Source: Planctomycetota bacterium
GTDB taxonomy: Bacteria > Planctomycetota > UBA1135 > JAKEFM01
NCBI GenBank assembly: GCA_035695825.1
Contig: DASRRH010000009.1
Coordinates: forward strand, 87,044 to 151,043
DNA: 64,000 nucleotides
Direction: 5' to 3'
In this document: in pieces, positions 13,863 to 37,098 of the stretch
Layout of the letters: every line of letters starts with the position of its first letter
Position numbering within the stretch: the stretch's first letter is position 1
Position numbers and translations under genes: made by a program
Notes under the pieces: generated by a model
Database searches by the model: none
Told to the model about the DNA's origin: nothing
Seen by the model: only the letters and a program-made list of their open reading frames with translations

Positions 13863-13863
13863 G

Positions 13864-14926: not shown

Positions 14927-14977
14927 GATGGCGCCTCGCCGAAGGGGATCTGGACGTTTCCCACTCCCCGGGCCGAC

Positions 14978-15712: not shown

Positions 15713-16497
15713 GCCCCGCGGCCTTGCCCGTCCGCCGCCCGGCCGGACTCTCCGCCCGCGCGTGGGCCGCCGGCGTCCGTCTCGTAGGGGCGCGAGAGCT
15801 CGCGGCCTACTTCGACTCCGCGATCGCCTACGTCTACACGATCGGGTTCGTCGTGCTCGCGAACGCGATCTTCATGAACGAGTTCTTCCTGACGGGCACG
15901 GTCGAGATGGCGGGGTTCTTCGACCGACTCCCCCTCCTCCTCGCGGTCTTCCTCCCCGCGGTGACGATGCGCCTCTGGGCCGAGGAGCGCCGCCAGCGGA
16001 CGATCGAGCTGCTCCTCACCCTCCCCCTCACGCCGGCGCAGGCGGTCCTCGGGAAGTACCTCGCGGCGATGGCCCTCTACGGCGGCTTCCTCGCGGGGTC
16101 GCTCCCGATCCTCGCGATGCTCCTCGCGCTCGGCCACCCCGACCTCGGGCGGATCCTCGGGGGCTACCTCGGGGCCGCCTCCCTCGGCTCCCTCCTGATC
16201 GCGCTCGGGATGCTCCTCTCGGCCGTGTCGGGGGACCAGATCGTGGCGTTCGTCCTCAGCGCAGTCGCCGCCTTCGCGCTCGTCCTCACGGGCAACGACA
16301 GGGTCGTCGCCGTGCTCGACGGCCTCGCGCCGCGCCTCGGGGTCGGGACCTTCCTCTACGAGTCGGTCTCGGTCGTCCCCCCCTTCGACGCCTTCGTGCG
16401 CGGCCTGGTCGACCTCGGGGCGATCGTCTACTTCGCCGGGGGGACCGCGCTCTTCCTCTGGCTCAACGCGCGCCGGCTCCGGCGCAACCGCGCGTGA
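15709..16497 (+). CDS. ABC-2 type permease (GldF-like)
   Basis: ATG 15709 overlaps the ATPase stop (ATGA). The protein has six hydrophobic segments and the block RLWAEERRQRTIELLLTLPLTPAQAVLGKYLAA typical of ABC-2/GldF permeases. The upstream part of track ORF 12448..16497 is rejected. Confidence 0.85.
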   Translation: MSPAALPVRRPAGLSARAWAAGVRLVGARELAAYFDSAIAYVYTIGFVVLANAIFMNEFFLTGTVEMAGFFDRLPLLLAVFLPAVTMRLWAEERRQRTIELLLTLPLTPAQAVLGKYLAAMALYGGFLAGSLPILAMLLALGHPDLGRILGGYLGAASLGSLLIALGMLLSAVSGDQIVAFVLSAVAAFALVLTGNDRVVAVLDGLAPRLGVGTFLYESVSVVPPFDAFVRGLVDLGAIVYFAGGTALFLWLNARRLRRNRA

Positions 16498-21416: not shown

Positions 21417-22609
21417 TCACGCGCGCGGCCGGCCCGGCATCGGCACCACCCGGACGGGCGGCTCGTACGCGATGCCGGGATTTGCCCAGTCGAAGCCGGA
21501 GGGGGTGAGGTCGAGGCTCGAGGCGAGGATCTCGTCCCAGGTGAGCGCCTTCCCCGTGTAGGCCGCCTCGCGGCCGAGGATCGCGAGCAGCGTGCTCTCC
21601 GCGATCTGCTTCGTCTCGTTCAGGGGGGACCCCGAGCGGATGCTCTCGATCAGGTCGGTCTGCTCCTGGACGTAGGCGTCGGGCGCCTCCCCCTGGAAGG
21701 TCCAGGGGTTCGCCCCCGCGATCGTCCCGGCGTAGGGGGAGGCGACCCCCTCGCTCCCGTAGAACCAGGCGCCCACCTCGCCGAAGGCGCCGGCGATCTG
21801 GCGGTTCATCGAGAGGCAGTGGACCCCCCCCTCGAACGCGTAGTCGACCGCGAAGTGGTCGTAGACGTTGCCGTGCTCGGGGCCCGTCCGGGCCTGCCTC
21901 CCTCCCGTTCCGATCGCGCGGGCGGGCTTCGCCCGGAGCGTCCACGCCACGACGTCGAGGGTGTGGACATGCTGCTCGACGAGGATGTCCCCCGAGAGCC
22001 AGTCGAAGTAGGGCCAGTTGCGGACCTGGTAGTCGAGCTCCCGTTCGCCGGGCTTGCGGTCGTATCTCCAGAGCGCCCCCGTGTTGTACCAGGCGCGCGC
22101 GGAGAGGACTTTCCCGATCGCCCCCTCGTGGACCCGGCGGATCGTCTCGCGGAACTTGCGGTGGTGGCGGTAGAGGGTCCCTGCCACGACGCCGAGCCCC
22201 TTTCGCCCCGCCTCCTCTCCGGCCGCGAGGATCTTGCGCACGCCGGCCGGGTCGACGGCGACCGGCTTCTCGAAGAAGACGTGCTTTCCCGCCGTGACCG
22301 CCGCGGCGAAGTGGAGGGGCCGGAATCCGGGGGGCGCGCAGAGGAGGACGAGGTCGACCCCGCAGTCGAGGAGCCTCCGATAGGCGTCGTAGCCCGCGAA
22401 GCAGCGCTCCTCCTCGACGGCGTACCCCTCGTGCTTCAGCCCCGCGAGGTAGGTGCGGCATTCCGCGAGCCGGTCGGGGAACGCGTCGGCGAGCGCGACC
22501 AGGCGCAGGCCCGGCGCGGCCATCAGGAAGTTCTCCGCCGCCCCCGTGCCGCGCCGGCCGCAGCCGACGAGCCCCGCGCGGATCGGCTCGGGTCCCTTCG
22601 AATCCCGGC

Positions 22610-22613
<4 letters not shown>
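21417..22613 (-). CDS. Gfo/Idh/MocA family oxidoreductase (no signal peptide)
   Basis: GTG 22613 overlaps the upstream stop (GTGA). Motifs are Rossmann IRAGLVGCGRRGTG, HVFFEKPVA (EKP motif) and ILVEQHVHTLDV. It is a close paralog of the upstream gene. Confidence 0.85.
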
Positions 22614-23862
<1,249 letters not shown>

Positions 23863-23866
<4 letters not shown>

Positions 23867-24525
23867 TTCTCCTCCCGGATCCGGATGTTCCGCCAGTGGA
23901 TCGGATGCCCCTCGTTCTGGAAGGCGATGTGTCCCGCCTCCGCCTTGACGCCCGAGGCGAGGCCCACGACCGCGCCGTTCAGCTTGACCGCGACCTTGTC
24001 TCCCTTCACCTCGATCTCCGTCGCGTTCCACTCGGCGAGGGGTCGGCGCGCCTTCTTCCTCGCGGCGGCGTCGTCCTTGACGGTCGCCTTGATCCCCATC
24101 GACCGGATCGCGCCCGCCTCCCGGAACGACCCCTCTACGGCGAGGCTCTTCGGCCAGACCTTGTCCGGCTCGTTCACGAAGAGGAGGACGCCGCTGTCTC
24201 CCTCGAACCTCGTCTCGTCCTTGAGGACGCCGAGCGGCTTCTCGTACCTCCACTCGAACCGGAAGGTGAAGTCGCGGTGCTTCTCCGTCGTGTAGAGGAG
24301 TCCCTTCGGCCCCCCTCGGCAGACGAGCTCCCCCTCCTCGACCCCGAAGGGGATCGTGACCGTGATCGGCTCGCCGGGCGACACTCCCTCCCTCTTCTCC
24401 ACGGCGTGGATCTGCCACTCGCGGAGGTCCTTCCCGTCGAAGAGCGACCGGAAGCCCTCCTCGTCGTCCTTCGCTTCCTGCGGAAGGAAGGCGAGGAGGA
24501 GCGGGTAGAGCGAGCGTGGACCCAT
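23863..24525 (-). CDS. DUF1080 (3-keto-disaccharide hydrolase family) protein
   Basis: Short signal peptide MGPRSLYPLLLAFLP. Family blocks are GFRSLFDGKDLREW, DFTFRFEWRY and the C-terminal GHIAFQNEGHPIHWRNIRI. Confidence 0.85.
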
Positions 24526-24534
24526 GCTTCGCCC

Positions 24535-25158
24535 CTACTCGGGCCGGATCCGGAGATTCCTCCAGTGGATCTCCGCCCCCTCCGACTGGAAGCCGATGAC
24601 CCCCTCCTTGAAGGGGTGCTCGGTCACGGTGGAGATCAGGGTCCCGTTGACGCGCGCGGCGACCTGTCCCCTCTTCGCGACGATCTCCATCGAGTTCCAC
24701 TCGCCGACCGGCTTGCACGCCTTCTTCCGGGCCTCGGCGTCGGTCGTGAACTTCGTCTGCTCCTTCGACTCGATCGGGATGATGCGGGCGACCTCCTTGT
24801 TCATCCCCTGGACCTCGATGCTCCGCGGCCAGATCTTGTGCTCGGTGATGAAGAGGAGGTAGCCGCTGTTTCCGCCGAAGTCGTCGTCGTTCTTCAGGTC
24901 TGCCGGCCGCTTGTAGCGCCAGTCGAACCGGAGGGTGAAGTCGCCGTAGGGCTTCTCCGTGTAGAGGTAGCCGGGCGGCGTCCCCGTGCAGACGATGGCG
25001 CCGTCCTTCACGGAGAAGGTCTTCGCCGGGTCGGCGTCCTTCTCGCCGAAGTGGAACTTGAAGCCGGCGAGGTCCTTGCCGTTGAAGAGCGGGACGAAAC
25101 CCTTCTCGTCCTCCTGCGGAGCGAGAAGGAGGAAGGGGAGCAGGGCCCGGTGGAGCAT
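24535..25158 (-). CDS. DUF1080 (3-keto-disaccharide hydrolase family) protein
   Basis: ATG 25158 (GGAGGA 7 nt upstream) gives MLHRALLPFLLLAPQ. Family blocks are GFVPLFNGKDLAGF, DFTLRFDWRY and GVIGFQSEGAEIHWRNLRI. Confidence 0.85.
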   Translation of the reverse strand: MLHRALLPFLLLAPQEDEKGFVPLFNGKDLAGFKFHFGEKDADPAKTFSVKDGAIVCTGTPPGYLYTEKPYGDFTLRFDWRYKRPADLKNDDDFGGNSGYLLFITEHKIWPRSIEVQGMNKEVARIIPIESKEQTKFTTDAEARKKACKPVGEWNSMEIVAKRGQVAARVNGTLISTVTEHPFKEGVIGFQSEGAEIHWRNLRIRPE

Positions 25159-25229
25159 GGCGAGTCCTCCGGCGGGGGTCCTATCCGGCCCTTCCCCGGG
25201 CGTCAACCGAGGGGACTCCGTCCCGGGCC

Positions 25230-25235
25230 TACAAT
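25230..25235 (+). promoter_or_regulatory. -10-like TACAAT located 8 nt upstream of GTG 25244 (possible leaderless transcript)
   Basis: The sequence reads CCTACAATCCCTTCCCGTGGAG. It has the same AATCC context as the CATAATCC motifs. Confidence 0.35.
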
Positions 25236-25243
25236 CCCTTCCC

Positions 25244-25519
25244 GTGGAGAAGGCGCTCCTCCCCGGCGCAGACCTGATCGAGGCGGGGCTCGCCGACCTC
25301 GCGCGAGGGGTCGAGTCGATCCCGGCGCTCCTCGTCCTGGTCGGGGCGCCGCGGCTCCGGGAGGGTGGGATCGCGGTCCCGGAGACGGGGATCCGCGATC
25401 CCGAACATCGCCTCTACGCGAGGCTGGGTGAAGAGGACCCGGACTCGGCCCACTCCCGCTACAACGCGCTGATTCGGAGGCTCGTGAGCTACGAGAGGGC
25501 GCTCGAGTGCGCGCCCTAG
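25244..25519 (+). CDS. Small hypothetical protein (91 aa), upstream partner of the NTase-fold gene
   Basis: In-frame GTG 25244 within track ORF 24986..25519. The sequence is VEKALLPGADLIEAGLADLARGVESIPALLVLVGAPRLR...SAHSRYNALIRRLVSYERALECAP. It overlaps the next gene by 13 nt. No family recognised. Confidence 0.5.
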   Translation: MEKALLPGADLIEAGLADLARGVESIPALLVLVGAPRLREGGIAVPETGIRDPEHRLYARLGEEDPDSAHSRYNALIRRLVSYERALECAP

Positions 25520-26046
25520 CCGACGCGGAGCGGATCCGGGAGTTCTTCCGAGAACTCGGCCGCGAGGCGAGGACGCCCGCTCGAGCCTATCTGACCGGGG
25601 GCGCGACGGCCGTGCTCCTCGGCTGGCGCGAGACGACGATCGACGTCGACGTCCGGTTCGTCCCGGAGAGCGATGCGCTTCTGCGGGCCATCCCGCGGCT
25701 CAAGGAGTCCCTCCGGATCAACGTGGAGCTGGCGGCTCCCCTCGACTTCGTCCCCGTGCCGCCCGGCTGGGAGGAGCGGAGCCGGTTCGCATTCCAGGAG
25801 GGGAAGCTCGCCGTCTACCACTTCGACTTCGACGCCCAGGCGCTCGCGAAGCTCGAGCGCCGACACGCCCGCGATCTGGAGGACGTCCGCGAGATGATCC
25901 GCCGGGGTCTGGTCGACCCGAAGAGGCTCCTCGAGGGCTTCGAGAAGATCGCGCCCGAACTTCATCGCTACCCGGCGGTCGATCCCGGCTCCTTTCGGCG
26001 GGCCGTCGAACGCGCGGCGAAGGAGTCCGGGGGCTCCGTGTCCTGA
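25507..26046 (+). CDS. Minimal nucleotidyltransferase-fold protein (DUF6036 / AbiEii-MNT-like)
   Basis: The block YLTGGATAVLLGWRETTIDVDVRF fits the NTase-fold G[GS]-x(9-13)-DxD signature. The protein is 179 aa with a GTG start. Confidence 0.6.
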   Translation: MRALADAERIREFFRELGREARTPARAYLTGGATAVLLGWRETTIDVDVRFVPESDALLRAIPRLKESLRINVELAAPLDFVPVPPGWEERSRFAFQEGKLAVYHFDFDAQALAKLERRHARDLEDVREMIRRGLVDPKRLLEGFEKIAPELHRYPAVDPGSFRRAVERAAKESGGSVS

Positions 26047-26077
26047 CGCGAGGTCTGCGATTCCCGGGCGACCGGAA

Positions 26078-26114
26078 GGGGAGGGAGGAGTTCTCGTCCC
26101 TGCTCTCCCTCTCC
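26078..26114. terminator. Hairpin between convergent genes (10-bp stem, one mismatch)
   Basis: GGGGAGGGAG (26078-26087) pairs with CTCCCTCTCC (26105-26114) across a 17-nt loop. It lies between the stops at 26046 (+) and 26129 (-). Confidence 0.3.
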
Positions 26115-26128
26115 TGTCTCGCGGGGGG

Positions 26129-26479
26129 TCAGATGGCTTCCTTCTCGTAGCGCTCGATCGTCGTCTCGACCTGCCAGACGGCCTCCTCGGCCTCCTCGAA
26201 ATTCTTCGCGTCCGCGACCGCGTGGGCCATCACGCCGAGCATCCCCGCCCACGGGAGGACGACTCGAAGCTTCTCCAGTTCGAGGATCCGCCGGACTCGC
26301 AACGCCTCGTCCGCGATCCCCGAGGAACGGTCCGCCTCCGCGGAGATCCGGTCGTGGAGCCGCTCGACGTAGGCCTTGAAGGCGTAGAAGCGACTCTCCG
26401 GGACCGCCGTTCGGCAGGCGGGGAGCGCAACGAGGGGAGAGAAGAACAGGAATGCTCGGATGCAGCCTTCGAGCTTCAT
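26129..26479 (-). CDS. Hypothetical lipoprotein
   Basis: MKLEGCIRAFLFFSPLVALPAC carries a lipobox (LPAC). GAGG lies 8 nt upstream of ATG 26479. The mature part is helical and charged. No family recognised. Confidence 0.55.
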   Translation of the reverse strand: MKLEGCIRAFLFFSPLVALPACRTAVPESRFYAFKAYVERLHDRISAEADRSSGIADEALRVRRILELEKLRVVLPWAGMLGVMAHAVADAKNFEEAEEAVWQVETTIERYEKEAI

Positions 26480-26553
26480 GGTCCGTACCTCGCAGGGAGC
26501 AGGGGGATTGTGGCAAGAGGCTCTCGCCCGGTGGGAGCCCGAGGAGATCCGCG

Positions 26554-28368
26554 TCAGTCCCGCCGCAGCTCGACGACCCGGATGTTCCGGAAGGAGACGC
26601 GCGAGCCCTCGTCGTGGTTCTGGATCCCGACGAATCCCCCGAGCGAGCGCTCCCCGGTGAAGTCGTTCACGCGCCGGCCGTTGATCCTAACGACGTAACG
26701 GGTGCCGGTCGCGGCGATCTCCATGTGGTTCCACGACCCCGGATCCGCGGTCGGGATCCGGGTCGAATCCTGGAAGTCGTAGATCGAGCCGGTCCGGTGC
26801 CTCGGGTCGGCGCCGTCGCAGATCTGGACCTCGTAGCCCCGATGGACGGCGACCAGTGGGTCGGTTCCCGGATCGGGGAAGCGGACGAAGACGCCCGAAT
26901 TGTCCTCCCGGCGCGCGACCTTCCAGTCGAGGAGGAGGAGGAAGTCCTCGAACGGGCGCTCGTGCCAGAAAAGCCCCATCCCGCCCCGGCTGACGAGGCA
27001 ATCCCCCTCGACGTCGAACCCGCCCGGCCCCGCCATCTTCCAGCCTTGAGGCGCCCCCTCGAAGAGGACGTGGTAGGCGACCGCGTTCGCCGGGAGCTCC
27101 TTCACGCGGACGTTCCGGAAGCGCACGCCGTCGCCGTCGAAGCGGTTCTGGAGGCCGATGAACCCCTCCCGACGCCGATCGCCGACGAACCGGTCGACCG
27201 TCCCCCCGTTCATTCGAACCGTGACCTCGTTCCCGACGCACGCGATCTCGCAGTCGTTCCACTCGCCGGGCCTCCGGAGGCGAGCATTGCTCGGTGCCGG
27301 GGACGAGCCGATCGCCCCGGTCGAGCTCTTCTCCCTCCCGTCGTCGCCGATCCGGACCGAGTAGCCATACTTCACGGCGACCCACGGGTCGTTCCCCGGA
27401 TCGGGGAGCCGGACGAAGACGCCGGAGCCGGCCGAGGTCTTCTCCTGGAGAAACTCGAGCCGGAGGAGGATGTTCTCGAAAGGCTTCGCCGCGAACCACC
27501 AGAGGCCCGTTGCGCCCTGGGGGATCGCCACGCCATCCTCCAGCCGAAATCCGCCGGGACCCTCCTGCTTCCACCCCACCGAGGCATGGGGAGGATCGAG
27601 GAGCGCCCGGCACCCCTCCGCGTCGACGTCGCGTCCCATCGCCCAGCGGATCCCCTCGACGAGGTGGGTGAGGTAGCGGGGATCCTGCCAGACCTCCTCG
27701 CGGTGGCCGAGGGCCGTGTAGAACACGCGCCCCTCGCCGAACTCGCGGCTCCAGGAAAGGGCGAAGTCCCGGTCGTCGCGGTTCACCCCCTTCGCGGAGA
27801 GGTCGACGCTCTGCGGGTCGAGCGAGAGGAGGACGTGGACGCGCGAGCGTTCCCAGTTCCGGAACTGGTAGATCTCGTCCGCGATCGTGAAGGAGGCGCC
27901 GAGGGGGTGGGTCGAGGGGTGGTCGGGGTCCTCGACGCGGACGCGGACGTCCTCGTTCCAGGGGTGCCCGTCGAAGATTCCGCCGAGCATCTCGCCGTAG
28001 GCGGGCCATCCGTAGAAGGTGTCCGCCGCCGGATGAATCCCGACGAATCCGCCGCCGCGCTTCACGAACTCGAGGAGCGCGTTCTTCTGCCCCTCGTCGA
28101 ACGGGAGCTCTCCCGAGGTGTAGAAGACGACCGCTTCGTAGCGCGAGAGGTTCGCCTTCGTCACCGCGCCGCAGTCCTGGGTCGCGTCGACATCGAAGGA
28201 GTCGTGCGCAGCGGCCGTGAGCTGCGCCTCGGCGAGCGAGAGGGTCTGCGGGGCGGGCCTCGTCACCACGGAGTGCTGGTAGCTCGCCGAGTGGGTGAGG
28301 AAGAGGACGCGCGGCGGATCGGCTGCGGGGGGGCGGAGCGCCCCGAGGAGGAGGAGAAGGGGCAGCAT
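26554..28368 (-). CDS. ThuA-like domain fused to two DUF1080 domains, secreted
   Basis: Signal peptide MLPLLLLLGALRPPAA. ThuA blocks are RVLFLTHSASYQHS, GGGFVGIHPAADTFYGWPAYGEMLGGIFDGHPW and FYTALGHREE. Two DUF1080 units follow, ending GFIGLQNRFDGDGVRFRNVRV and GFVGIQNHDEGSRVSFRNIRV. Confidence 0.85.
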   Translation of the reverse strand: MLPLLLLLGALRPPAADPPRVLFLTHSASYQHSVVTRPAPQTLSLAEAQLTAAAHDSFDVDATQDCGAVTKANLSRYEAVVFYTSGELPFDEGQKNALLEFVKRGGGFVGIHPAADTFYGWPAYGEMLGGIFDGHPWNEDVRVRVEDPDHPSTHPLGASFTIADEIYQFRNWERSRVHVLLSLDPQSVDLSAKGVNRDDRDFALSWSREFGEGRVFYTALGHREEVWQDPRYLTHLVEGIRWAMGRDVDAEGCRALLDPPHASVGWKQEGPGGFRLEDGVAIPQGATGLWWFAAKPFENILLRLEFLQEKTSAGSGVFVRLPDPGNDPWVAVKYGYSVRIGDDGREKSSTGAIGSSPAPSNARLRRPGEWNDCEIACVGNEVTVRMNGGTVDRFVGDRRREGFIGLQNRFDGDGVRFRNVRVKELPANAVAYHVLFEGAPQGWKMAGPGGFDVEGDCLVSRGGMGLFWHERPFEDFLLLLDWKVARREDNSGVFVRFPDPGTDPLVAVHRGYEVQICDGADPRHRTGSIYDFQDSTRIPTADPGSWNHMEIAATGTRYVVRINGRRVNDFTGERSLGGFVGIQNHDEGSRVSFRNIRVVELRRD

Positions 28369-28473
28369 CGCGATGCTCCTGTCGAGCAGGGGAAGCGGCC
28401 GGAAGTCTACACCTCCAGAGTGAAGAGGCGCCCTCGGGGGCGCCTCCGGGTTCGTGCCGTGGAGGGGGAGGTC

Positions 28474-28767
28474 CTACTTCAGGACCCACACGCTCCGGCT
28501 GTAGATCGAGATGTAGCCGGTGAAGATGTTGATCAGAACGTCGACGAAGCTCTGCTGCGTCTTGATCGTGTAGTCCGACGCGCCGCCGGCCATCCGCCCG
28601 CCGTCGATGTGGTTCAAGGGCACGAGCCCCCACAGGATGTACCACTGCCTCGCCTCCGCGGCGGGGCGGCTCCCTCCTTTCCCGACCGTGTGCATCATCG
28701 TGTAGCACGCGGTAAGGGGGAGGCAGAGCGCCGCGCAGAGGAGTCCCGCTCGGATCGATCGCTTCAT
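28474..28767 (-). CDS. Bor/Iss family lipoprotein
   Basis: ATG 28767 (GGAGG upstream) gives MKRSIRAGLLCAALCLPLTAC (lipobox). WYILWGLVPLN...YTIKTQQSFVDVLINIFTGYISIYSRSVWV parallels the lambda Bor pattern (FFVSGIGQ...ETQQTFVNGLLGFITLGIYTP). Confidence 0.7.
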   Translation of the reverse strand: MKRSIRAGLLCAALCLPLTACYTMMHTVGKGGSRPAAEARQWYILWGLVPLNHIDGGRMAGGASDYTIKTQQSFVDVLINIFTGYISIYSRSVWVLK

Positions 28768-28860
28768 CCTCTCGACCTCCGTTTCTCGGCCGGCCCCTCG
28801 GGCCGGACGGCTGTGGGGGGGGATCCTAGGAAGGCCGACCCAGGGGATCAAACGCCCGCG

Positions 28861-30945
28861 TCAAGTCGCGGGAGCCGCCGCGGAGCGGGAGGAGAGGCGG
28901 GCGCCGACGTAGAGGAGGCCGACGAGGAGGAGCAGGAACCGGTAGCCCGTGACGAGCGAGAGGTACTCGAGGACGCCCCCGGCGACCGCGCCGAGGAGGT
29001 TCGCGCCGTACTCGCGCGCGAGACCTCCCGACCTCTTGATCGCGGTCCCGAAGAGGAGCCCCGCGCAGAAGATCGGGCTCAAGCCCAACCCCGCGAAGAA
29101 GGCCGACTCGAGCCAGCGGTTCTCGATCCGGACCGAGCCGATCGGGAAGAGCGCGTTCAGGCCGAGGAGGGCGAGGAGCGCGGCCGTGACGACCCAGGGC
29201 CGGCGGATCTCGATCCTCGAGACGACGAGGGTCGCGGCGAGGGCGAGGACGAGGATCGAGGCGATCACCGCCGACGCGACGGCCCAGGTCGAGCCCCAGA
29301 GCAGCCCGAACTGGACGATCGACTTCGTCTCGAGGAGGAGGAATCCCGCCCCGAGGAAGAAACACTCCCAGGACCATCGGCCGGGCGCGCGGCGGAGCGC
29401 GCCGAGGATCGAGGCCCCCGAGATCGCCAGCACGAACGCGAGCACGACCAGGTAGTGGGCAGGGAGGTGGCGGCTCCTCATGTAGAGGAAGGGCCAGTCG
29501 TCGCTCGTCGGGGGGACGGAGGCGTCGCGCTGGAGGAGCCGGCCGGGGCTCGTCTCCCGCGCGTGGCCGTAGGCGAGGACGCGGTCGGGGATCGGGGGGA
29601 AGTCGGTCCGGCCCCGCAGCCTCGGCCCGGCCAGCATCACGGCGAGCCAGGAACGGCGCTCGTGGACCTGGACGCGCGGCTCCTCCCCGAAGGCCGAGGA
29701 CGCCAGGCTCGCGAGCCGGTCGACCAGCCACTTCTCCCGGAAGTAGTTGTAGAGGCAGAGGAGGCCGTTCGGCTTGAGGACGTCCCGCACTGCGCGGAAC
29801 GACTCCTCCGTGAAGAGGAAGCTCTCGAGCCGCACGCTCGAGAAGGAGGACTGGACCGTCAGGGAGTCGACGAGGCCGAAGACGACGAGGTCGTAGCGCC
29901 GCCCCGTCGTCCGCAGGAAGTGGCGCGCGTCGTCGCAGACCCGGGTGACGCGCGGGTCGTCGTACGGGCGTTCCGGGTGGAGCTCGGCGCCGAGCCGCAG
30001 GATCACGGGATCGATCTCGACCGCGTCGACGCGCTTCGCCCCGTGACGGAGCGCCGCCGCGACGTCGGTGCCGCTCCCCGCGCCGAGGATCAGCACGTCC
30101 TCGAAGGAGTCCCCGAAGGCCGCGTAGGGCCACTCGTAGAAGTACTCCTTCCTCTCGAGGGGCGCCATCGACTGGTGGAAGATCGCGTTCACCTCGAGGA
30201 CGGTCTCGTCGGCCTCCTTCCGCACCGTGATCCGCGAGTAGGGGGACCAGAGGCTGTCGGGAGCCAAACCGTGGACGAGGGGGACGGAGGCGAGGAGGAG
30301 GGCCCCGTTCGCGAGAGTGACCGGGAGGCGCGCCCGCCCGAGAAACGGGAACCCGAGCAGGGCGGCGCCGAAGAACCAGAAACCGGCGGGCTGCTCGTAG
30401 GACGAGAAGAGGCCGAAGGCGCCGACCCCGACCAGGCTCCCCGCCACGTTCCACGCGTAGGCCCGGAGCGCGGGGAGGCGGTTCATCTCCCGCCCCATTC
30501 CCTGGGCCAGCGCGGCGAAGAAGGCGGCGATCCCGACGAAGAGGACCGGCAGGAGGATCCAGGTCTGGACGACGAGTCGGTTCTCCGTCGTGCCGCTCGA
30601 GAAGTAGATCTCGGTCGCGGTCGGGACCGCGACCTCGAGCCGCAGCGCCGCGACCGCGATGAGGATCCCGAGGAGGAGGCTCGGGAACAGGGGAAGGAGA
30701 TTGCGCCTCGAGCGGGCGAGGAGACACCCGAGCCCGATCCCGAGGAAGGAGGCGAGCAGGATCAGGTTCGAGAAGTAGGCGAGGAGCCGGACCTGCGAGG
30801 GGAGCCAGCGGATGAGCGCGACCTCGTAGAAGAGGACGAGGAAGGACCCGAGGAAGACGCGGGCGGGGGAGGGGCGTTCCCCCGAGGGAGCGCCACTCGG
30901 TCGGGGCTTCTCCGGCCTCGTCAGGACGTCCGTTTCGGCAGCCAA
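28861..30945 (-). CDS. Fused polytopic membrane / spermidine-synthase-like (SAM-MTase fold) protein
   Basis: N-terminal TM block FLGSFLVLFYEVALIRWLP... The core has VLILGAGSGTDVAAALRHGAKRVDAVEIDPVILRLG and LVVFGLVDS. A C-terminal TM block follows. There is no ATG/GTG before the first TM helix. Candidate starts are TTG 30945 (25-nt overlap with the upstream gene) or CTG 30924 (CTGA overlap). Confidence 0.75.
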   Translation of the reverse strand: MAAETDVLTRPEKPRPSGAPSGERPSPARVFLGSFLVLFYEVALIRWLPSQVRLLAYFSNLILLASFLGIGLGCLLARSRRNLLPLFPSLLLGILIAVAALRLEVAVPTATEIYFSSGTTENRLVVQTWILLPVLFVGIAAFFAALAQGMGREMNRLPALRAYAWNVAGSLVGVGAFGLFSSYEQPAGFWFFGAALLGFPFLGRARLPVTLANGALLLASVPLVHGLAPDSLWSPYSRITVRKEADETVLEVNAIFHQSMAPLERKEYFYEWPYAAFGDSFEDVLILGAGSGTDVAAALRHGAKRVDAVEIDPVILRLGAELHPERPYDDPRVTRVCDDARHFLRTTGRRYDLVVFGLVDSLTVQSSFSSVRLESFLFTEESFRAVRDVLKPNGLLCLYNYFREKWLVDRLASLASSAFGEEPRVQVHERRSWLAVMLAGPRLRGRTDFPPIPDRVLAYGHARETSPGRLLQRDASVPPTSDDWPFLYMRSRHLPAHYLVVLAFVLAISGASILGALRRAPGRWSWECFFLGAGFLLLETKSIVQFGLLWGSTWAVASAVIASILVLALAATLVVSRIEIRRPWVVTAALLALLGLNALFPIGSVRIENRWLESAFFAGLGLSPIFCAGLLFGTAIKRSGGLAREYGANLLGAVAGGVLEYLSLVTGYRFLLLLVGLLYVGARLSSRSAAAPAT

Positions 30946-31667
30946 AGGTCGAGGAGGATCCCCGCCGCAGCGAGGACGGAGAGGAGGTTGAAGAGGGTCC
31001 CGGAGACGAGGAGGACGTCGAGGAAAACTTCGCCCCCGCGCGCGAGCCACCAGGAGGCGAGGTCGAGGAAGAGGGAGAGGCCGAGGAGGAAGACACCGCC
31101 GTGGACGAGGGGGCGAGGCCAGCGGGTGCCGAGGGAGAGCGCGCCGAGGAGGATCGCGAGCGAGCCGAGGGCGAGGGCGTGCGTGTGGGTCGAGGCGGCG
31201 AGGATCTTCGCGTCCGTCGGGCGGACGTCCCTCGAGACCGCAGCCGCCTTGACGTCGTCCCAGAAGTCGAGAGTCGGCGGCTCGGAGGCGGCCCCCGCGC
31301 GCCGCGAGTGGCAGGAGAGGCAGGCGTGCGAGAGGACCTCCGCCGGCGCGGCGTCGCCTAGCTCGGGGCTGTCGTAGTCCTCGGCGAGCCGGGAGCCGCG
31401 GAGCCAGGAGAGGAGGGCCTGGCGCTCCTTGTCCGCCAGCTCTCGCGGGTGGCCCCGTTCGAGCGCGACGAGGAGCGGGGCGCGCGCCCGGATGCCCCGG
31501 TAGGCACCCCGCAGGTCGTCGATCGAGAGCCCCGGCCGGTCGTCGCGGTTCGCGTGGTGGAACCGCAGGTGCGCCGCGGACGCGGCGAACCCCCCGAGGA
31601 TCGAGAGGAGGAGGAAGGAGAGGCCGGCGCGGACGCTCGCCGGCAGGTCGCGGAGTCGTCCCTCCAC
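30921..31667 (-). CDS. Four-TM membrane protein with a single CxxCH motif
   Basis: GTG 31667 lies 3 nt after the upstream stop. TM segments are GLSFLLLSILGGFAASAAHL, ALALGSLAILLGALSL, GGVFLLGLSLFLDLASWWL and LLVSGTLFNLLSVLAAAGILL. The loop after TM1 contains SHACLSCHSRR. Confidence 0.7.
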   Translation of the reverse strand: MEGRLRDLPASVRAGLSFLLLSILGGFAASAAHLRFHHANRDDRPGLSIDDLRGAYRGIRARAPLLVALERGHPRELADKERQALLSWLRGSRLAEDYDSPELGDAAPAEVLSHACLSCHSRRAGAASEPPTLDFWDDVKAAAVSRDVRPTDAKILAASTHTHALALGSLAILLGALSLGTRWPRPLVHGGVFLLGLSLFLDLASWWLARGGEVFLDVLLVSGTLFNLLSVLAAAGILLDLWLPKRTS

Positions 31668-31670
31668 CCG

Positions 31671-32909
31671 TCAGTCCACCTTGAGGACGCTCTCCCCGAT
31701 CTCGACGGTCTCCCCCGTCGAGACCGCCCGGTGGGCGAGGATGCCGACGGCGGTCGCGCGGTACCCCTCCTCCGCGCCGCAGACGACCGCCTCCCCCTGC
31801 GCGACGCTCTTCAGGAAGGCCTCGACCGCGTAGTAGAGGGGCGGCTGCGGGAGCCCGACCCCTTCCTTGAGCTTCCCCTGGGCCGCGAGCTTCGTCGCGT
31901 CGGCGATCAGCGTGATCCCCTCCTCGTTCCCGAAGCGCTGGCGGTTCGCGTAGACCTCCCAACCCTGCGTCGGCGCGTCGGCCTCCTTGAACATCCATCC
32001 GGCGGTCCAGGCGAGCTTGAGGGTCGCCTGCGCGCCGTGGAAGACCTCGTGCGCCCCCTCGAAGGAATTCGCGAGGCTCGCGGCGTAGGCGAGGCGGACC
32101 CCCTCGGGGAAGGCGAGGTCGAGGAGGACGGTGTCGGGGACCTTCCGCCCGTCGGCGTGGAGCCGGACGGCCCCGCTCCCCCGGACGGAGGCGGGGTAGC
32201 GGCCGACGAACCAGTGGAAGACGTCGAACTGGTTCGTCCCGAGCTCCCCCTCGAGGCCGAGGGTGACCTCGGGGTCGAGCCTCCAGTTGAGCGAGCGCTC
32301 GCGCGCGGGGTCGGCGGCGGGGACGCGCCAGGAGGTCTTCCGGTAGTGCTGCGCGCGCATCGAGACGAGGTCGCGGCCCGCGTCCGAGCGGAAGAAGGAC
32401 CAGGCGAGGCGGTAGACCGGGTTCGCGCGCGCCTGGAGCCCCGACTGGAAGACCGACTTGGAGGATCGCGCCCCCTTCGCGATCGCGCGGGCGTCCTCGA
32501 GGGTCGAGGCGATCGGAGCCTCGCAGTAGACGGCCTTCCCCGCCGCGAGGAGGTCCTCGACGATCGAGCGGTGGAGGTGGGTCGGGGTGGAGACGAAGAC
32601 CGCCCGCAGGTCCTTCTTGCGTTCGAGCATCGCGCGGTGGTCCGCGAACCCCTCGACGCCGGAGGCGCGGCGCGCGCCCGACTCGAGGCGGGAGGGATCG
32701 ACGTCGCAGAGGGCGGTCACGCGCGCCCCGTCGAGCTTCTGGAGCTCCCCGAGGATCGCCCTCCCCTGGCGACCGACCCCGACGACCGCGATCTCGACGG
32801 GCTCGTCCGGCGCGAAGGGGGAGAGGTCCTCGAGCGCGGGGACGAGGGAGATCGCGGCGAGCGCGCCCCCCGCCTCGACGATGAACTCCCGGCGGCTCGG
32901 CTCGCTCAT
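31671..32909 (-). CDS. Gfo/Idh/MocA-like protein with twin-arginine leader and atypical EAP motif
   Basis: ATG 32909 overlaps the ApbE stop (ATGA). Leader is MSEPSRREFIVEAGGALAAISLVPA and Rossmann block is IAVVGVGRQGRA. The usual EKP motif reads AVYCEAPIA. Confidence 0.8.
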   Translation of the reverse strand: MSEPSRREFIVEAGGALAAISLVPALEDLSPFAPDEPVEIAVVGVGRQGRAILGELQKLDGARVTALCDVDPSRLESGARRASGVEGFADHRAMLERKKDLRAVFVSTPTHLHRSIVEDLLAAGKAVYCEAPIASTLEDARAIAKGARSSKSVFQSGLQARANPVYRLAWSFFRSDAGRDLVSMRAQHYRKTSWRVPAADPARERSLNWRLDPEVTLGLEGELGTNQFDVFHWFVGRYPASVRGSGAVRLHADGRKVPDTVLLDLAFPEGVRLAYAASLANSFEGAHEVFHGAQATLKLAWTAGWMFKEADAPTQGWEVYANRQRFGNEEGITLIADATKLAAQGKLKEGVGLPQPPLYYAVEAFLKSVAQGEAVVCGAEEGYRATAVGILAHRAVSTGETVEIGESVLKVD

Positions 32910-33820
32910 CGGGCCTGGAAGAGGTCCGCCTCCGGCCCCTCGATCCGCCACTCCGCGTTCGCCCCGAGGATCGCGGAGGTCAGGTCGGAGGGGGCCCCCG
33001 GCGGCCTTCGCCCGAGGACGAGGAGGGCGGTCGTCCACCCGTCCGCGAGACGGGCCGAGGGGGAAATCGCCGCGGCCGCCCGGGCGCGCGCGGCGGGGGA
33101 GCCCGTCATCGGGTCAAGGACGTGGCCGAGCCGGATCCCCTCGCGCTCGACGACCCGGCCGTGGGGAGCCGAGACGGAGAGGGCGCGGTCGCGCAGGATC
33201 GCGGCGAGGGGAGGCGAGGTGCCGTCCTCCGCGCCGCGGACCGCGACCCGCCAGCCCGCCGTGCCCGGCGGCGCGCCGATGCCGACGACGCTGCTCGTCC
33301 CGCCGTGGAGGAGGGCGCAGTCGATCCCCGCGGCGCGGAGCCGGGCCGCGGCGAGGTCGAGGGCGTGCCCCTTCCCGATCCCTCCGAGGTCGAGGGAGAC
33401 GCCGCGCCGGAGGAACCGGACGGTCCCGCGGTCGCGGTCGAGGACGAGGAGGTCCAACCCGACCCGGGAGAGGGCGGCGGGGACCCTCTCGGAAGCCGCT
33501 TCGCCCTCCGCGCGGAACCCGAGAGCCTGCATCAGGGGCGCGACGGTCGGGTCGAACGCTCCCCCCGAATCGCGGTGGATCGCCCGGCAGGCCTCGAGGA
33601 GGTCGAAGGTCTCCGGGTCGAGCCGCACGGGAGCCTCGGCGGCGCGGGCGTTCACGCGCGCGAGGAGGCTCTCCCGCCGGAAGAGGCTGAGCCTCCGGTC
33701 CTCCTCCTCGACCTCGGCGAGGGCCTCCTCTCCCGCCGCGCGCAGCCGCGCCTCCCCCTCCCCCGCGAGGACCGCCTCGAAGCGCGTGCCCATCGCGTGC
33801 GTCGCCGCGACGACGATCAA
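32906..33820 (-). CDS. apbE: FAD:protein FMN transferase (ApbE family), no signal peptide or lipobox
   Basis: THAMGTRFEAVL lies near the N-terminus. Other motifs are SLFRRESLLARVNA and the hallmark LDLGGIGKGHALD. TTG 33820 overlaps the upstream stop (TTGA). No hydrophobic leader exists in any upstream in-frame extension. Confidence 0.8.
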   Translation of the reverse strand: MIVVAATHAMGTRFEAVLAGEGEARLRAAGEEALAEVEEEDRRLSLFRRESLLARVNARAAEAPVRLDPETFDLLEACRAIHRDSGGAFDPTVAPLMQALGFRAEGEAASERVPAALSRVGLDLLVLDRDRGTVRFLRRGVSLDLGGIGKGHALDLAAARLRAAGIDCALLHGGTSSVVGIGAPPGTAGWRVAVRGAEDGTSPPLAAILRDRALSVSAPHGRVVEREGIRLGHVLDPMTGSPAARARAAAAISPSARLADGWTTALLVLGRRPPGAPSDLTSAILGANAEWRIEGPEADLFQAR

Positions 33821-35154
33821 GGGCTGGGGAGGAGCGGCCGGGCGGTGAGCCTCTGCGGGTCGAAGGCGAAGGCGCACCCCTCCCACATCGAGCGCGTGGC
33901 GAGGTCGACGATCACCATCACCTTCGTGCCGAGCTCGACCCCGCTCGCGGGGGCCTGGCGCGTCCGGATCGCGCGAAACCAGTCGAGGCGGTGGCGGTCC
34001 TGGTCGTCGCCGATGTCGGGGCACTCGATCCGCTGCTCCTCGACCTCCTCCGCGAAGAGGCGCTCCGGGCGGAGCACGCAGTGGTGGCTCCCGAGGTAGA
34101 GGTTCGCCTTGTGCCCCCGGATCATCGGCTCGACCCCGGTCTCGTTCGCCGTCGAGCCGGCGACGACGAGGGTGTGCTCCTTCTCGAACTCGACGGTGAG
34201 GTTCACCTGGTCGTGATTCTCCATCGCCTTGTCGACGTAGTGGCCCCCCGAGGCGGTCACGCGGACGGGCCAGCCCATGTCGAGGGCCTGGACCATCGGG
34301 GTCATCACGTGGACGAGGAGGTCCCCGATGATCCCCGTCGAGAACCTCCGGTAGCGGCGCCACCGGGCGTAGACCTCGGGGTTCCAGGGCTGGGGGCCGA
34401 GGGGCCCGCACCACGCCTCCCAGTCGAGGCTCTCTCCGGGCACCCACGCGGGGTCGATCTTGTAGTAGAGCCACTCCCCGTTCTTCGAGTTCCGGCAGTA
34501 CCCCGTCTGGCTCGAGGTCGGCTTCCCGATCGCCCCCTCCGCGATCAGCCGCTTCGCCTCGCGCCACTTCGGGAACTGCACCTGCTGCGTGCCGACCTGG
34601 AAGACGCGCTCGGGGTGGGCGTTCACGACCTCGCGGAGGCGAAGCGCGTCGGCGAGGTTCCGGGTCATCGGCTTCTCGAGGTAGACGTCCTTCCCCGCGA
34701 GGATCGCGTCGACCCCCATCGCCCCGTGCCAGTGCTCGGGGCTCGCGATCAGCACGCCGTGGAGGTCCTCGCGCTTCAGGAGCTCCCGGTAGTCGCGGTA
34801 GACGTCGACCGCGGAGCCCTGCTTCTCCGCGCAGATCTTCTGCGCCTTCTCGAGGCGGGGCCTGCAGACGTCCGCGAGGGCGCGGATCTCGACCTTCGCC
34901 TCTCCCGCCGCGACGAGGCCGAGGATCGACTCGCAGTGGCCGGTCCCCATCCCCCCCGTCCCGATCACGCCGATCCGGATCGGGTCCTCGTCGCGGATCC
35001 AGGCTCCGGCGGCCGCGACGGAGGCGTCCGAGCGCCGGGGAATCGAGCAGCCTCCGAGGAGGGCGGCCGCGCCGGCGGCCGCCGCCGTCTCCGTCAGGAA
35101 CTCGCGCCTCGAAGGGGCGCGGACGGGGTCGAGCGAAGAAGGGGTGCCTTCCAT
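33817..35154 (-). CDS. Gfo/Idh/MocA family oxidoreductase with twin-arginine leader
   Basis: ATG 35154 (GAGGAG upstream) gives MEGTPSSLDPVRAPSRREFLTETAAAAGAAALLGGCS. Motifs are IRIGVIGTGGMGTGH and DVYLEKPMT. Confidence 0.85.
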   Translation of the reverse strand: MEGTPSSLDPVRAPSRREFLTETAAAAGAAALLGGCSIPRRSDASVAAAGAWIRDEDPIRIGVIGTGGMGTGHCESILGLVAAGEAKVEIRALADVCRPRLEKAQKICAEKQGSAVDVYRDYRELLKREDLHGVLIASPEHWHGAMGVDAILAGKDVYLEKPMTRNLADALRLREVVNAHPERVFQVGTQQVQFPKWREAKRLIAEGAIGKPTSSQTGYCRNSKNGEWLYYKIDPAWVPGESLDWEAWCGPLGPQPWNPEVYARWRRYRRFSTGIIGDLLVHVMTPMVQALDMGWPVRVTASGGHYVDKAMENHDQVNLTVEFEKEHTLVVAGSTANETGVEPMIRGHKANLYLGSHHCVLRPERLFAEEVEEQRIECPDIGDDQDRHRLDWFRAIRTRQAPASGVELGTKVMVIVDLATRSMWEGCAFAFDPQRLTARPLLPSP

Positions 35155-35364
35155 GGGGGCTCCTCGGTCTCTCCGGGGGGATTCCTCGCGGTCCGGCAGA
35201 GTGGGGAGCGTATCGGTCTCCGCTTCCGGGCGGAAGCGACCGGGGCCTTCCGGCCTCGCTCCGCGACAGGGTCCGCCAACGTCTCCCGGAGGCGTCCGTA
35301 GGCTGGCTCGGATTCCCGCCGCGCCTCCCCCCGACCGGGGGGGCCGGGTTCCGAGAGTGGTCCC

Positions 35365-37098
35365 ATGCTCGCGACGGCGCTCGCCTCGTTCCTCCTCCCT
35401 CCCCTCGGCGCGGCCCGGCAGCCGGACCTCCGCCTCGTCGAGACGGTCCAGGGCGAGGTCGGGAAGGGGATCGACGAGACGATCTCCCGTCTCGAGAAGT
35501 TCGGCTTCTCGGGGGTCGGCCTCGTCGCGAGGGGAGGGGAGGTCCTCCTCGCGAAGGGGTACGGGCTCGCCGACTGCGAGAAGGGGGTCCCCTGCACGGT
35601 CGAGACCGTCTTCTCGGTCGGCTCGATCACGAAGCAGTTCACCGCCGCCGCGATCCTCAAGCTCGAGATGGAGGGGAAGCTCGCGGTGGAGGATCCGATC
35701 TCGAAGCACCTCCCGGGCGTCCCTCCCGACAAGGCGGGGATCACCCTCCACCACCTCCTCACGCACTCCTCGGGGCTCCGCTCCGACTTCGCCGAGGGGG
35801 ACTTCGAACCGGTCGGGAGAGAGGAGTACGTGCGGCGGGCCCTCGCCTCGCCCCTCCTCTTCGAGCCGGGGACTTCGTACGCGTACTCGAACGCGGGCTA
35901 CTCCCTCCTCGGCGCGATCGTCGAGCTGCGCTCCGGGAAGGGCTACGAGGCCTACCTGCGCGCCGCCCTCTTCGAGCCCGCCGGGATGCTCCGGACCGGG
36001 TACCGGATCCCGAAGTGGAGGCCCGAGGACCTCCTCGTCGGCTACCGAGCCGGAGAGCGGTGGGGGACGATCCTCGAGAGGCCGATGGCGGAGGACGGCC
36101 CCTACTGGGCTCTGCGGGCGAACGGGGGGATCCACACGACGCTCGGGGACATGCTCCGCTGGCACCTCGCGCTCGAGGGGGACGCGGTCCTCTCCACGGA
36201 GGCCCGCCGGAAGCTCTTCACTCCCCACGTCGCCGAGGGCCCCGAGGGCCGGTCGCACTACGGCTACGGCTGGGCGATCTTCAAGACCCCGCGGGGGACG
36301 AAGCTCGTCGCCCACAACGGGGGGAACGGGATCTTCGCGGCCGACTTCCGCCGCTACGTCGACGAGGGGGCGCTGCTCCTCCTCGCCTCCTCGAACGCCG
36401 AGATGCCGGCGATCGCCCTCTCGAACCACGTGGCGCGGATCCTCTTCGGGGACCGCGAGCCTCTTCCCCCCCGCGTCGTCGACCTCGATCGGGCGGGCCT
36501 CAAGCGCTGCGCGGGGAACTACCGGCTCCCTTCGGGCTCCTCGATCCGCGTGGACGCGCGCGAGCGGGGCCTCGCGCTCGGGGCCTCGCAGCCCGACGCG
36601 CTGGCGCTCCTCCTCGGCGCCGGCGCGGGGGGAGAGCTCGCGACGCGCGTCGAGGCGATCGTGCGGAGCGCCTCGGCGGGGGACTTCGCTGCGCTCCACG
36701 CCGCGGTCCGCGCGAGCGTCCCCGTCGCGGCGTTCGCCGAGGCGGAGGCGTCGGTCTGGTCGCGCTGGAAGGCCGAGCTCGGGGCGTTCCGCGCCGTGAA
36801 GGCGGTCGCCCGGCCGGGGCGCGAAGGGATCGTGCGCGCCTTCGCCTGCCTCGAGTTCGAGAAGGGGACCCGGCTCCTCGAGGAGGAGTGGGACGAGGGG
36901 GTCCTCGCCAGCGTCCGCGTCCGCGAGGAGCCCCTGACGCGCGAGATCTTCCCCGAGTCGGCGCTCGGTTTCGTCGCCTTCGACCTCCCGCGGTGGGAGA
37001 CCTGGCGCGTCCGGTTCGAGGTCGACGCCTACGGCGCTCCGGCGCGGCTCGTCCTCCCGGCGGAGGGGGGCGAGGTCGCCGCCGTCCGCAAGCCGTGA
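35365..37098 (+). CDS. Serine hydrolase, beta-lactamase (class C/PBP-like) fold, with about 200-aa C-terminal extension
   Basis: The SxxK motif occurs in FSVGSITKQFTAAAILKL; YSNAGYSLLG is also present. It is a paralog of 45019..46773. Confidence 0.85.
   Translation: MLATALASFLLPPLGAARQPDLRLVETVQGEVGKGIDETISRLEKFGFSGVGLVARGGEVLLAKGYGLADCEKGVPCTVETVFSVGSITKQFTAAAILKLEMEGKLAVEDPISKHLPGVPPDKAGITLHHLLTHSSGLRSDFAEGDFEPVGREEYVRRALASPLLFEPGTSYAYSNAGYSLLGAIVELRSGKGYEAYLRAALFEPAGMLRTGYRIPKWRPEDLLVGYRAGERWGTILERPMAEDGPYWALRANGGIHTTLGDMLRWHLALEGDAVLSTEARRKLFTPHVAEGPEGRSHYGYGWAIFKTPRGTKLVAHNGGNGIFAADFRRYVDEGALLLLASSNAEMPAIALSNHVARILFGDREPLPPRVVDLDRAGLKRCAGNYRLPSGSSIRVDARERGLALGASQPDALALLLGAGAGGELATRVEAIVRSASAGDFAALHAAVRASVPVAAFAEAEASVWSRWKAELGAFRAVKAVARPGREGIVRAFACLEFEKGTRLLEEEWDEGVLASVRVREEPLTREIFPESALGFVAFDLPRWETWRVRFEVDAYGAPARLVLPAEGGEVAAVRKP

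Follow-up and report, generated by a model that had tools for sequence, protein, structure and literature searches.

A conserved four-gene unit of Planctomycetota that joins a signal-less ApbE to two Tat-leader Gfo/Idh/MocA proteins and an Aq_1264_TM-family membrane protein

Introduction

What does a flavin transferase modify if it carries no export signal and its gene lies between two genes whose products are predicted to leave the cytoplasm by twin-arginine translocation (Tat)? The question is raised by a locus on contig DASRRH010000009.1 of a Planctomycetota bacterium (assembly GCA_035695825.1), which we analyzed within a 64,000-nucleotide stretch (positions 87,044 to 151,043; hereafter the window) with a GC content of 72%. 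Five consecutive genes lie there on the minus strand: g1 (33817-35154; 445 amino acids, aa), a Tat-leader Gfo/Idh/MocA dehydrogenase; g2 (32906-33820), an ApbE-family FAD:protein FMN transferase of 304 aa from a TTG start, or 295 aa from the ATG at Met10; g3 (31671-32909; 412 aa), a Tat-leader Gfo/Idh/MocA paralogue; g4 (30921-31667; 248 aa, GTG start), an Aq_1264_TM-family membrane protein; and g5 (28861-30945; 694 aa if TTG 30945 is the start), a polytopic protein with a spermidine-synthase/S-adenosylmethionine-methyltransferase-like core. A first-pass annotation had read all five as one tightly coupled operon. The reading frames are backed by translation and by frame analysis of codon-position GC (GC3), the junctions that the annotation gave (TTGA at 33817-33820, ATGA at 32906-32909 and TGA-cgg-GTG at 31665-31673) re-read as it described them, with a g4/g5 overlap of 25 nucleotides (nt), and the motifs it pointed out (SRREFL in g1, SRREFI and EAP in g3, CLSCH in the first loop of g4 and ISGAS in g5) are all present.

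Here we show that the first four genes constitute a unit conserved across many Planctomycetota, and we put forward, tentatively and as somewhat short of an even chance, that the unit is a membrane-linked periplasmic dehydrogenase in which a flavin is attached before export and electrons follow an NAD–FMN–haem route to the membrane.

A four-gene unit shared by many genomes

The comparison was anchored on g4, which has 323 database relatives; a profile built from 30 recovered 128 relatives in GTDB contigs, with one genome per species, and the best 80 of these 128 define the loci compared, all from Planctomycetota and mostly from Phycisphaerae. Window proteins were searched against these loci by tblastn, and the counts for each gene include the loci with sufficient flanking DNA. 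The order and strand of g1-g2-g3-g4 recur across the loci at 40-67% protein identity: g3 lies directly 5' of g4 in 76 of 77 loci, g2 is present upstream in 67 of 70, and g1 in 59 of 63. An arrangement whose order and strand are shared by about 60-76 species genomes is far beyond chance. The tight coupling seen in the window is conserved as well, with the g2/g3 ATGA overlap in 41 of 65 loci and a g3-g4 spacing that is mostly 3 nt or -4 nt (a 4-nt overlap).

The exceptions are informative about which genes travel together. Where the block is split, the ApbE gene remains beside g3-g4, as in L048, which has no g1, and L074, in which g1 is displaced by two inserted genes; a g1-g2 pair without g3 was not encountered in any of the loci examined. 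Two loci (L016 and L036) have g3-g4 only and one (L075) has g4 alone. Genes of the AP_endonuc_2 family occur within 2.5 kb of the block in 29 of the 80 loci.

An 8.6-kb contig (L084) from a metagenome-assembled genome (MAG) labelled Pyrinomonadaceae, of the Acidobacteriota, also carries a g1-ApbE-g3 block, with a g3 60% identical to that of the window; either the contig was misbinned or the block has spread beyond Planctomycetota.

An ApbE without an export signal

Profile scores place g2 in the ApbE family (PF02424, 178.2 bits against a cut-off of 25.6). Its match to NF007774, the NCBIfam equivalog model for the E. coli/Salmonella ApbE, is 100.4 bits, below the cut-off of 498, so that g2 is best described as a family member and not as an equivalog of those enzymes. 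Residues 15-272 align with the solved ApbEs 5mgy and 4xdt, including the GIGKG, HxxDP and ADxxxTA motifs, of which the catalytic-His motif reads HVLDP (33110-33124, minus strand); K150, G151, H233, D236, P237, D262 and T265 are at least 80-95% conserved among 65 orthologues. In the alignment, the motifs for FMN transfer (GxxKG, the general-base His of HxxDP and the C-terminal D…T-A) are intact.

The first-pass annotation described this ApbE as having neither signal peptide nor lipobox, and named an upstream start with a signal peptide as something to look for. The g2 start lies 9 residues ahead of a conserved AMGTRFE, where the ApbE core begins, and neither signal peptide nor lipobox was found in g2 or in the orthologues examined: in most of them the frame is open for only 10-25 aa upstream of AMGTRFE and holds no hydrophobic stretch. 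Because the upstream open frames are short and non-hydrophobic in most orthologues, the missing export signal is a conserved property and not a mis-called start. One Phycisphaeraceae genome (L024) encodes, about 4 kb from the block, a second and conventional ApbE with an N-terminal hydrophobic anchor; the anchored gene is divergent from a gene for a secreted YceI–FGE-sulfatase fusion, with an AP_endonuc_2 gene following (13175-15812 of that locus). A further locus, L060, shows an ApbE match at the same position (about 14985-15647), seen as a match only. With an anchored paralogue present alongside, the ApbE of the block is a dedicated extra copy, at least in L024.

Two unequal Gfo/Idh/MocA proteins

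The two proteins encoded on either side of g2 are both predicted Tat substrates, judged by a twin-arginine motif followed by a hydrophobic region, and they differ in their catalytic site. g1 matches PF01408 (65.6 bits), PF19051 and PF02894, and scores 19.5 bits against the TIGR01409 Tat-signal model (cut-off 16.7). Its catalytic EKP (34669-34677, minus strand) is intact, and the lysine is kept in 61 of 61 orthologues. The best NCBIfam match is the glycoside 3-dehydrogenase BT_2158_fam at 109.5 bits, far under the 750-bit cut-off, which suggests a related subfamily only; the closest PDB entries are 8tdf/8tdh (E 1e-19), and the C-terminal half searched alone against PDB sequences gave no match. 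We presume, from these relationships, that g1 is a catalytic sugar or glycoside dehydrogenase with bound NAD(P).

The SRREFL motif of g1 is followed by a lipobox-like LLGGC (together 35047-35115, minus strand). This L-[LA]-G-[AGS]-C pattern recurs after the Tat motif in orthologues L002, L004, L005, L025, L026 and L029 and is missing in others, and part of the g1 family may consist of Tat-dependent lipoproteins.

g3 is built on the same fold. It matches PF01408 with 78.2 bits, R6, R7 and F9 of its twin-arginine leader are at least 90% conserved among orthologues, and its AlphaFold2 (AF2) model, with a predicted local distance difference test score (pLDDT) of 82, resembles glucose–fructose oxidoreductase (GFOR), the top Foldseek match being the Zymomonas enzyme (1h6d, E 1e-22). 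The GxGxxG motif, the acidic residue after β2, TPxxxH, and the Glu and Pro of E-x-P are all retained, and G44, G46, D69, T108-P109, H113, E130 and P132 are invariant in 76 orthologues. The lysine between that Glu and Pro is lost. The window protein has EAP in place of EKP (32514-32522, minus strand) and the orthologues E-[A/T/G/M]-P, with position 131 being Ala in 57, Thr in 10, Gly in 6, Met in 3 and Lys in 0 of 76, so that the first-pass description of a Gfo-like paralogue without the EKP lysine applies to all 76 orthologues.

The most conserved stretch of g3, residues 309-355 (EADAPTQGWEVYANRQ.F.N..GITLIADATKLAAQGKLKEGVGLP; 31845-31985, minus strand), is left unplaced by AF2, with pLDDT below 50 for residues 311-351. 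Across orthologues, residues 305-354 read W.FKE.D..T.GWEVYA…GITLIA.AT.L..QG.L..G..LP, with 21 invariant positions. A segment so constrained and at the same time unplaced in the model is what we would expect of an element that depends on a cofactor or a partner. Searched alone against PDB sequences, the segment retrieved only designed repeat proteins, which are spurious.

Inside this segment lies the candidate acceptor Thr339, in TLIADAT (31893-31913, minus strand). Its context is G-I-T-L-I-A-[D/E/G]-A-T, where residue 337 is Asp in 65 sequences, Glu in 7 and Gly in 4, and A338 and T339 are present in 76 of 76. Applied to g1-g4, a relaxed acceptor pattern, [STAG][GASDEM]A[ST], picks out a single site present in half or more of the orthologues, Thr339. 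A review of ApbE treats Ala-Thr/Ser as the central part of the acceptor motif and the -6 Asp as dispensable, with a Gly→Ala exchange at -2 only halving modification. The strict [S/T]GA[S/T] motif is not conserved anywhere in the orthologue alignments of g1, g2, g3 or g4, and the longer D-x-x-[S/T]-G-A-[S/T] that a neighbouring acceptor would carry is not conserved in g1, g3 or g4. The first-pass annotation had also seen no FMN_bind, NqrC or RnfG domain, which holds for the unit, and DUF2271, DUF3570 and NqrB/RnfD domains are likewise absent from it.

Two other candidates were set aside. 'AGST335' in g1 is a misfit even to the relaxed motif, and in split blocks the ApbE gene keeps company with g3 and not with g1. 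A perfect DRPSGAT near 63955 (minus strand) is an artefact read out of frame, with a real gene on the plus strand opposite.

A membrane protein with a CxxCH motif

The fourth gene encodes a member of a wider family of putative membrane cytochromes. PF27139 (PF27139.1, Aq_1264_TM) is annotated on a 100%-identical database protein (P0001) and on nearly all of the homologues listed; the assignment is this precomputed annotation, our local Pfam copy having no PF27139 model and giving no match. The AF2 model (pLDDT 89) shows a first transmembrane helix (TM1), a helical periplasmic domain of roughly 115 aa that holds the CxxCH, and three more transmembrane helices. The CxxCH reads CLSCH (31308-31322, minus strand), and sequence inspection by the positive-inside rule puts its loop outside; a second motif, STHTH (31179-31193, minus strand), lies at the periplasmic membrane face. 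Invariant residues are H37, R41, D42, C116, C119, H120, S159, H161, H163, D202 and R210, with W206/W207 near-invariant, and H37, R41, D42, H161, H163, D202, W206/W207 and R210 group at the periplasmic membrane face. We propose, from these features, that g4 is a haem-c membrane anchor and the electron outlet of the unit. Foldseek returned no solved structural relative (E>0.8).

An exhaustive profile search places g4 among 641 clusters (50% identity) at E ≤1e-3, 84 of them at E ≤1e-30. Five distant relatives were looked up, none with ApbE neighbours. Three are set amid unrelated genes, and two follow directly after an MtrB/PioB porin gene with cytochrome genes alongside: in a Ca. Manganitrophaceae MAG (L087, 3326-7714), the Aq_1264_TM gene is accompanied by the porin, an NrfB-like multihaem cytochrome and a monohaem cytochrome c, and on a metagenome contig (L088, 2839-7219) it comes straight after the porin, with a monohaem cytochrome c. 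These proteins share with g4 the entire architecture and the invariant residues, namely the H…D-G motif after TM1, the CxxCH, the HxH at TM2 and the D..WW.AR at TM3, and differ in having no Gfo or ApbE neighbours. The company of porin-cytochrome genes supports g4 as a generic inner-membrane cytochrome partner of periplasmic redox proteins, and the family may be an unrecognised inner-membrane component of porin-cytochrome conduits.

Longer relatives of 350-600 aa (P0365, P0371 and P0385) have two or three CxxCH periplasmic modules, or a periplasmic domain duplicated after the transmembrane bundle, so that the family includes predicted multihaem variants. A literature search found no characterised member of PF27139 and no paper on it.

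A proposed route for electrons

How might these four proteins work together? We infer covalent FMN on g3, a g1-g3-g4 complex, haem binding by g4, the class of substrate and the direction of electron flow, and arrange them as follows. g1 would be the catalytic subunit, of the glycoside/sugar 3-dehydrogenase type, exported folded with non-exchangeable NAD(P), as GFOR is. g3, with its dinucleotide fold kept and its catalytic lysine lost, would be a non-catalytic subunit that carries flavin. In the cytoplasm, before the folded g3 leaves through Tat, g2 would attach FMN to Thr339, whose A-[D/E/G]-A-T would be a divergent form of [S/T]-G-A-[S/T]. Once in the periplasm, the FMN tethered on the flexible g3 segment would split the two-electron hydride transfer from NAD(P)H into single-electron steps and would pass electrons to the haem c of g4, which would deliver them to the quinone pool or the respiratory chain. 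A flavin would be needed at this point because NAD(P)H can donate electrons only in pairs and haem accepts them one at a time.

Several lines of evidence support this proposal. The ApbE gene is coupled to g3, stays with g3-g4 when the block is split, and encodes a signal-less protein with intact motifs. The sole conserved ApbE-like motif of the unit is at g3 Thr339, in a stretch of pLDDT below 50, and such a location has a precedent in Flavodoxin_4 and FMN_red, where validated ApbE sites fall within inserted loops or extensions that are unstructured (PMC11334425). EKP is kept in g1 and never in g3, with Tat motifs in both. Members of the g4 family from other phyla have no ApbE beside them, and two follow MtrB/PioB, as would fit a generic partner for electron transfer at the membrane. 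The sugar context points the same way, with AP_endonuc_2 genes near the block in the loci compared and DUF1080/ThuA and Tat-Gfo genes in the window.

A number of observations weigh against the proposal. Gfo/Idh/MocA proteins are not known to carry a flavin, and pathways of the BT2158 type can be redox-neutral, needing no external acceptor. In L016 and L036 the g3 segment is unchanged with no ApbE adjacent. The invariance of A338-T339 is not specific evidence, since the whole segment is highly conserved, and the segment could be a simple docking element for g1 or g4. TLIA[D/E/G]AT has no Asp at -6 and, in 72 of 76 sequences, no Gly at -2, and all validated ApbE substrates carry a [S/T]GA[S/T]-like motif (PMC8238504).

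Alternative explanations

The best-surviving alternative, which we regard as unlikely, is that g2 flavinylates no product of the unit and that its linkage reflects co-regulation only. g2 could then be a general cytoplasmic ApbE with its acceptor elsewhere, an FAD-binding or FAD-pyrophosphatase maturation factor, or, least likely, an enzyme that transfers another nucleotide-derived group. Some ApbE homologues, such as Treponema Ftp, do have FAD pyrophosphatase activity, and both the lack of a canonical acceptor motif in g1-g4 and the two loci without an adjacent ApbE are what this explanation would predict. Adjacency in 67 of 70 loci and an ATGA overlap onto g3, maintained over deep divergence, are nevertheless hard to explain without a direct functional link; the transfer motifs of g2 are intact, and at least one such genome (L024) has a separate exported ApbE.

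Less probable still is that the same complex runs in reverse, as a periplasmic respiratory reductase in which electrons pass from quinol through the g4 haem and FMN to NAD(P) and on to an organic acceptor such as a keto-sugar. No computed result fixes the direction of electron flow, and many Phycisphaerae are facultative anaerobes. Such a reductase would parallel the flavinylated periplasmic fumarate and urocanate reductases, and the known ApbE-dependent periplasmic enzymes are mostly reductases fed by membrane cytochromes (PMC8238504). Set against this are the relationships of g1, which is closest to glycoside/inositol dehydrogenases, and its neighbours (a DUF1080 3-keto-disaccharide hydrolase, ThuA and AP_endonuc_2), which belong to oxidative 3-keto-sugar pathways; hydride transfer from flavin to NAD+ would, in addition, be thermodynamically uphill.

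It is improbable, in our estimate, that the ApbE is itself exported as a Tat 'hitch-hiker' on g1 or g3 and flavinylates g4 at Ser48 in the periplasm. The idea has some appeal: the signal-less ApbE gene sits between two genes for Tat substrates, an ApbE pre-loaded with FAD would solve the supply of periplasmic flavin, and the Ser48 motif (R-D-x-x-x-G-[LVF]-[ST], after TM1) matches the canonical site at D(-6), G(-2) and S/T(0), with D42 and G46 invariant, residue 48 at least 95% S/T, and a periplasmic location by the positive-inside rule. The position before it (-1) is, however, L/V/F and not Ala, one distant member has His at the S/T position, and the motif, as D-G-x-P-G-[LM]-[ST], is kept in distant g4 relatives without ApbE or Gfo neighbours. 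We have set Ser48 aside as an acceptor since its motif persists in members with no ApbE nearby, and thus is a family feature independent of ApbE.

That g5, with its spermidine-synthase-like core, works with the other four genes as a single functional system is very improbable and already contradicted by the comparative data: the 25-nt g4/g5 overlap is found in the window and in one close relative (L090, whose g3 is 83% identical to that of the window), and g5 lies 3' of g4 in 0 of the 68 other loci with room for it, where the genes that follow g4 vary (AP_endonuc_2, a tRNA synthetase, His-biosynthesis genes and others). The g4-g5 linkage is lineage-specific and g5 is outside the conserved module, so that the gene order proposed by the first-pass annotation stands for g1-g4 and falls for g5. 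g5 itself matches PF01564 (Spermine_synth) with 41 bits and lies far below the cut-offs of all NCBIfam equivalogs. Its ISGAS is, as had been stated, the only strict [ST]GA[ST] match in the five proteins, but it is irrelevant as an acceptor because g5 is outside the conserved unit.

Comparison with known systems

The proposed dehydrogenase can be compared with three known kinds of system. The first comprises Zymomonas mobilis GFOR and the Bacteroides BT2158-type periplasmic glycoside 3-dehydrogenases, which share with the unit a Tat-exported Gfo/Idh/MocA fold, GFOR being the best structural match of g3, and 8tdf/8tdh and BT_2158_fam the best sequence matches of g1. Export of GFOR with bound NAD(P) is established (cited in PMC8121099), and bound NAD(P) has been proposed for BT2158 (PMC8121099). 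In contrast to the unit, these enzymes regenerate their cofactor by means of a second sugar substrate; they lack an ApbE, a partner cytochrome in the membrane and a paralogue that has lost the lysine and bears an additional conserved segment.

The second kind, the flavoprotein-cytochrome c sugar dehydrogenases, comprises the FAD-dependent glucoside 3-dehydrogenases (G3DH/LacABC) and the FAD-dependent glucose dehydrogenases of the gamma-alpha-beta type (FAD-GDH). Like the proposed unit, these carry electrons from periplasmic sugar oxidation through flavin and haem c to the respiratory chain, and they have a Tat-dependent subunit and a 3-keto-glycoside pathway context (PMC8121099), as is predicted for the unit. 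They are characterized by a GMC-family FAD catalytic subunit and a separate multihaem cytochrome, whereas the unit has an NAD-dependent Gfo/Idh/MocA fold, a proposed ApbE-attached FMN and a predicted monohaem cytochrome with four transmembrane helices; Pfam and NCBIfam profile searches found no GMC domain in any of the five proteins.

The third kind comprises the ApbE-dependent extracytosolic systems, for which we compared NQR, RNF, NosR/NosX, PplA/extracellular electron transfer (EET), UrdA and fumarate reductases, DUF2271, DUF3570, Flavodoxin_4 and FMN_red. In these, as in the unit, an ApbE gene is clustered with genes for extracytosolic redox proteins and for a membrane cytochrome, predicted as such in the unit, and acceptor sites can lie in loops (PMC8238504, PMC11334425). 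The unit differs in that its ApbE has no export signal, it has no known acceptor domain and no [S/T]GA[S/T] motif, and its acceptor would be a Tat substrate of Gfo/Idh/MocA fold modified before export. A signal-less ApbE clade falls outside the scope of the 2021 flavinylation survey, because that survey removed ApbE and FMN-binding genes without an export signal (PMC8238504). A precedent for g2 is found in Klebsiella pneumoniae, in which a cytoplasmic signal-less ApbE is dedicated to a soluble NADH:fumarate reductase (PMC12052999); the acceptor in Klebsiella remains cytoplasmic and bears a canonical FMN_bind domain, whereas the candidate g3 is predicted to be Tat-exported and has no FMN_bind.

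By sequence criteria, then, the unit would work like the G3DH/LacABC dehydrogenases and the ApbE electron-transfer modules and is a member of neither. The first-pass annotation stated that it knew no characterised system of this composition, and full-text literature searches on ApbE with Gfo/MocA or twin-arginine, and on the g4 family, found no published description of one.

Genomic surroundings

Upstream of g1, an intergenic region (35155-35364), which we presume to be the promoter region of the unit, separates it from a divergent plus-strand gene of the beta-lactamase family (35365-37098; frame analysis and Pfam). The close relative L090 has a beta-lactamase-family neighbour likewise divergent from g1. 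A scan for the sigma-70 consensus upstream of g1 gave no match, promoter and terminator scans being uninformative at this GC content.

Downstream of the unit on the same strand (21417-28770, minus) are genes for a Bor-like lipoprotein, a ThuA + 2×DUF1080 protein (604 aa), two DUF1080 proteins and two further Gfo/Idh/MocA proteins, the first of which (22610-23770) has a twin-arginine leader in frame upstream. The genes 3' of the unit are a periplasmic 3-keto-sugar neighbourhood, and the unit together with this region may form one sugar-oxidation island.

Elsewhere in the window, a plus-strand gene at 10094-13786 contains a 309-bp tandem repeat (11860-13204; 4.4 copies, 84% match), which is in frame in an open reading frame (ORF) of 1231 aa and gives 103-aa protein repeats; the opposite strand shows a ladder of 103-codon ORFs.

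Implications

Taken at its fullest, our proposal would establish both a novel type of ApbE substrate and a novel logic of assembly, in which a Gfo/Idh/MocA-fold protein receives its flavin at a non-canonical A-[D/E/G]-A-T site from an ApbE in the cytoplasm, leaves through Tat, and forms an NAD(P)-FMN-haem wire with its catalytic paralogue and an uncharacterised Aq_1264_TM cytochrome; we think this possible and give it roughly one chance in three. Re-oxidation of the NAD(P) of periplasmic Gfo/Idh/MocA enzymes is an acknowledged gap, for which the authors of the BT2158 work suggested 'another as yet unidentified sugar' (PMC8121099). If our proposal is true, the wire would allow enzymes of the periplasm whose NAD(P) is non-exchangeable to feed electrons to the respiratory chain, and a tethered flavin combined with a membrane cytochrome would be a general solution through which this kind of sugar oxidation conserves energy. 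ApbE biology would also be extended to a cytoplasmic transferase that serves a Tat substrate, to an acceptor fold and motif beyond the [S/T]GA[S/T] rule, and to a clade outside the main survey. For PF27139, with its hundreds of 50%-identity clusters, the unit would offer a first lead on function; certain members of this family lie beside porin-cytochrome conduits in putative metal oxidisers.

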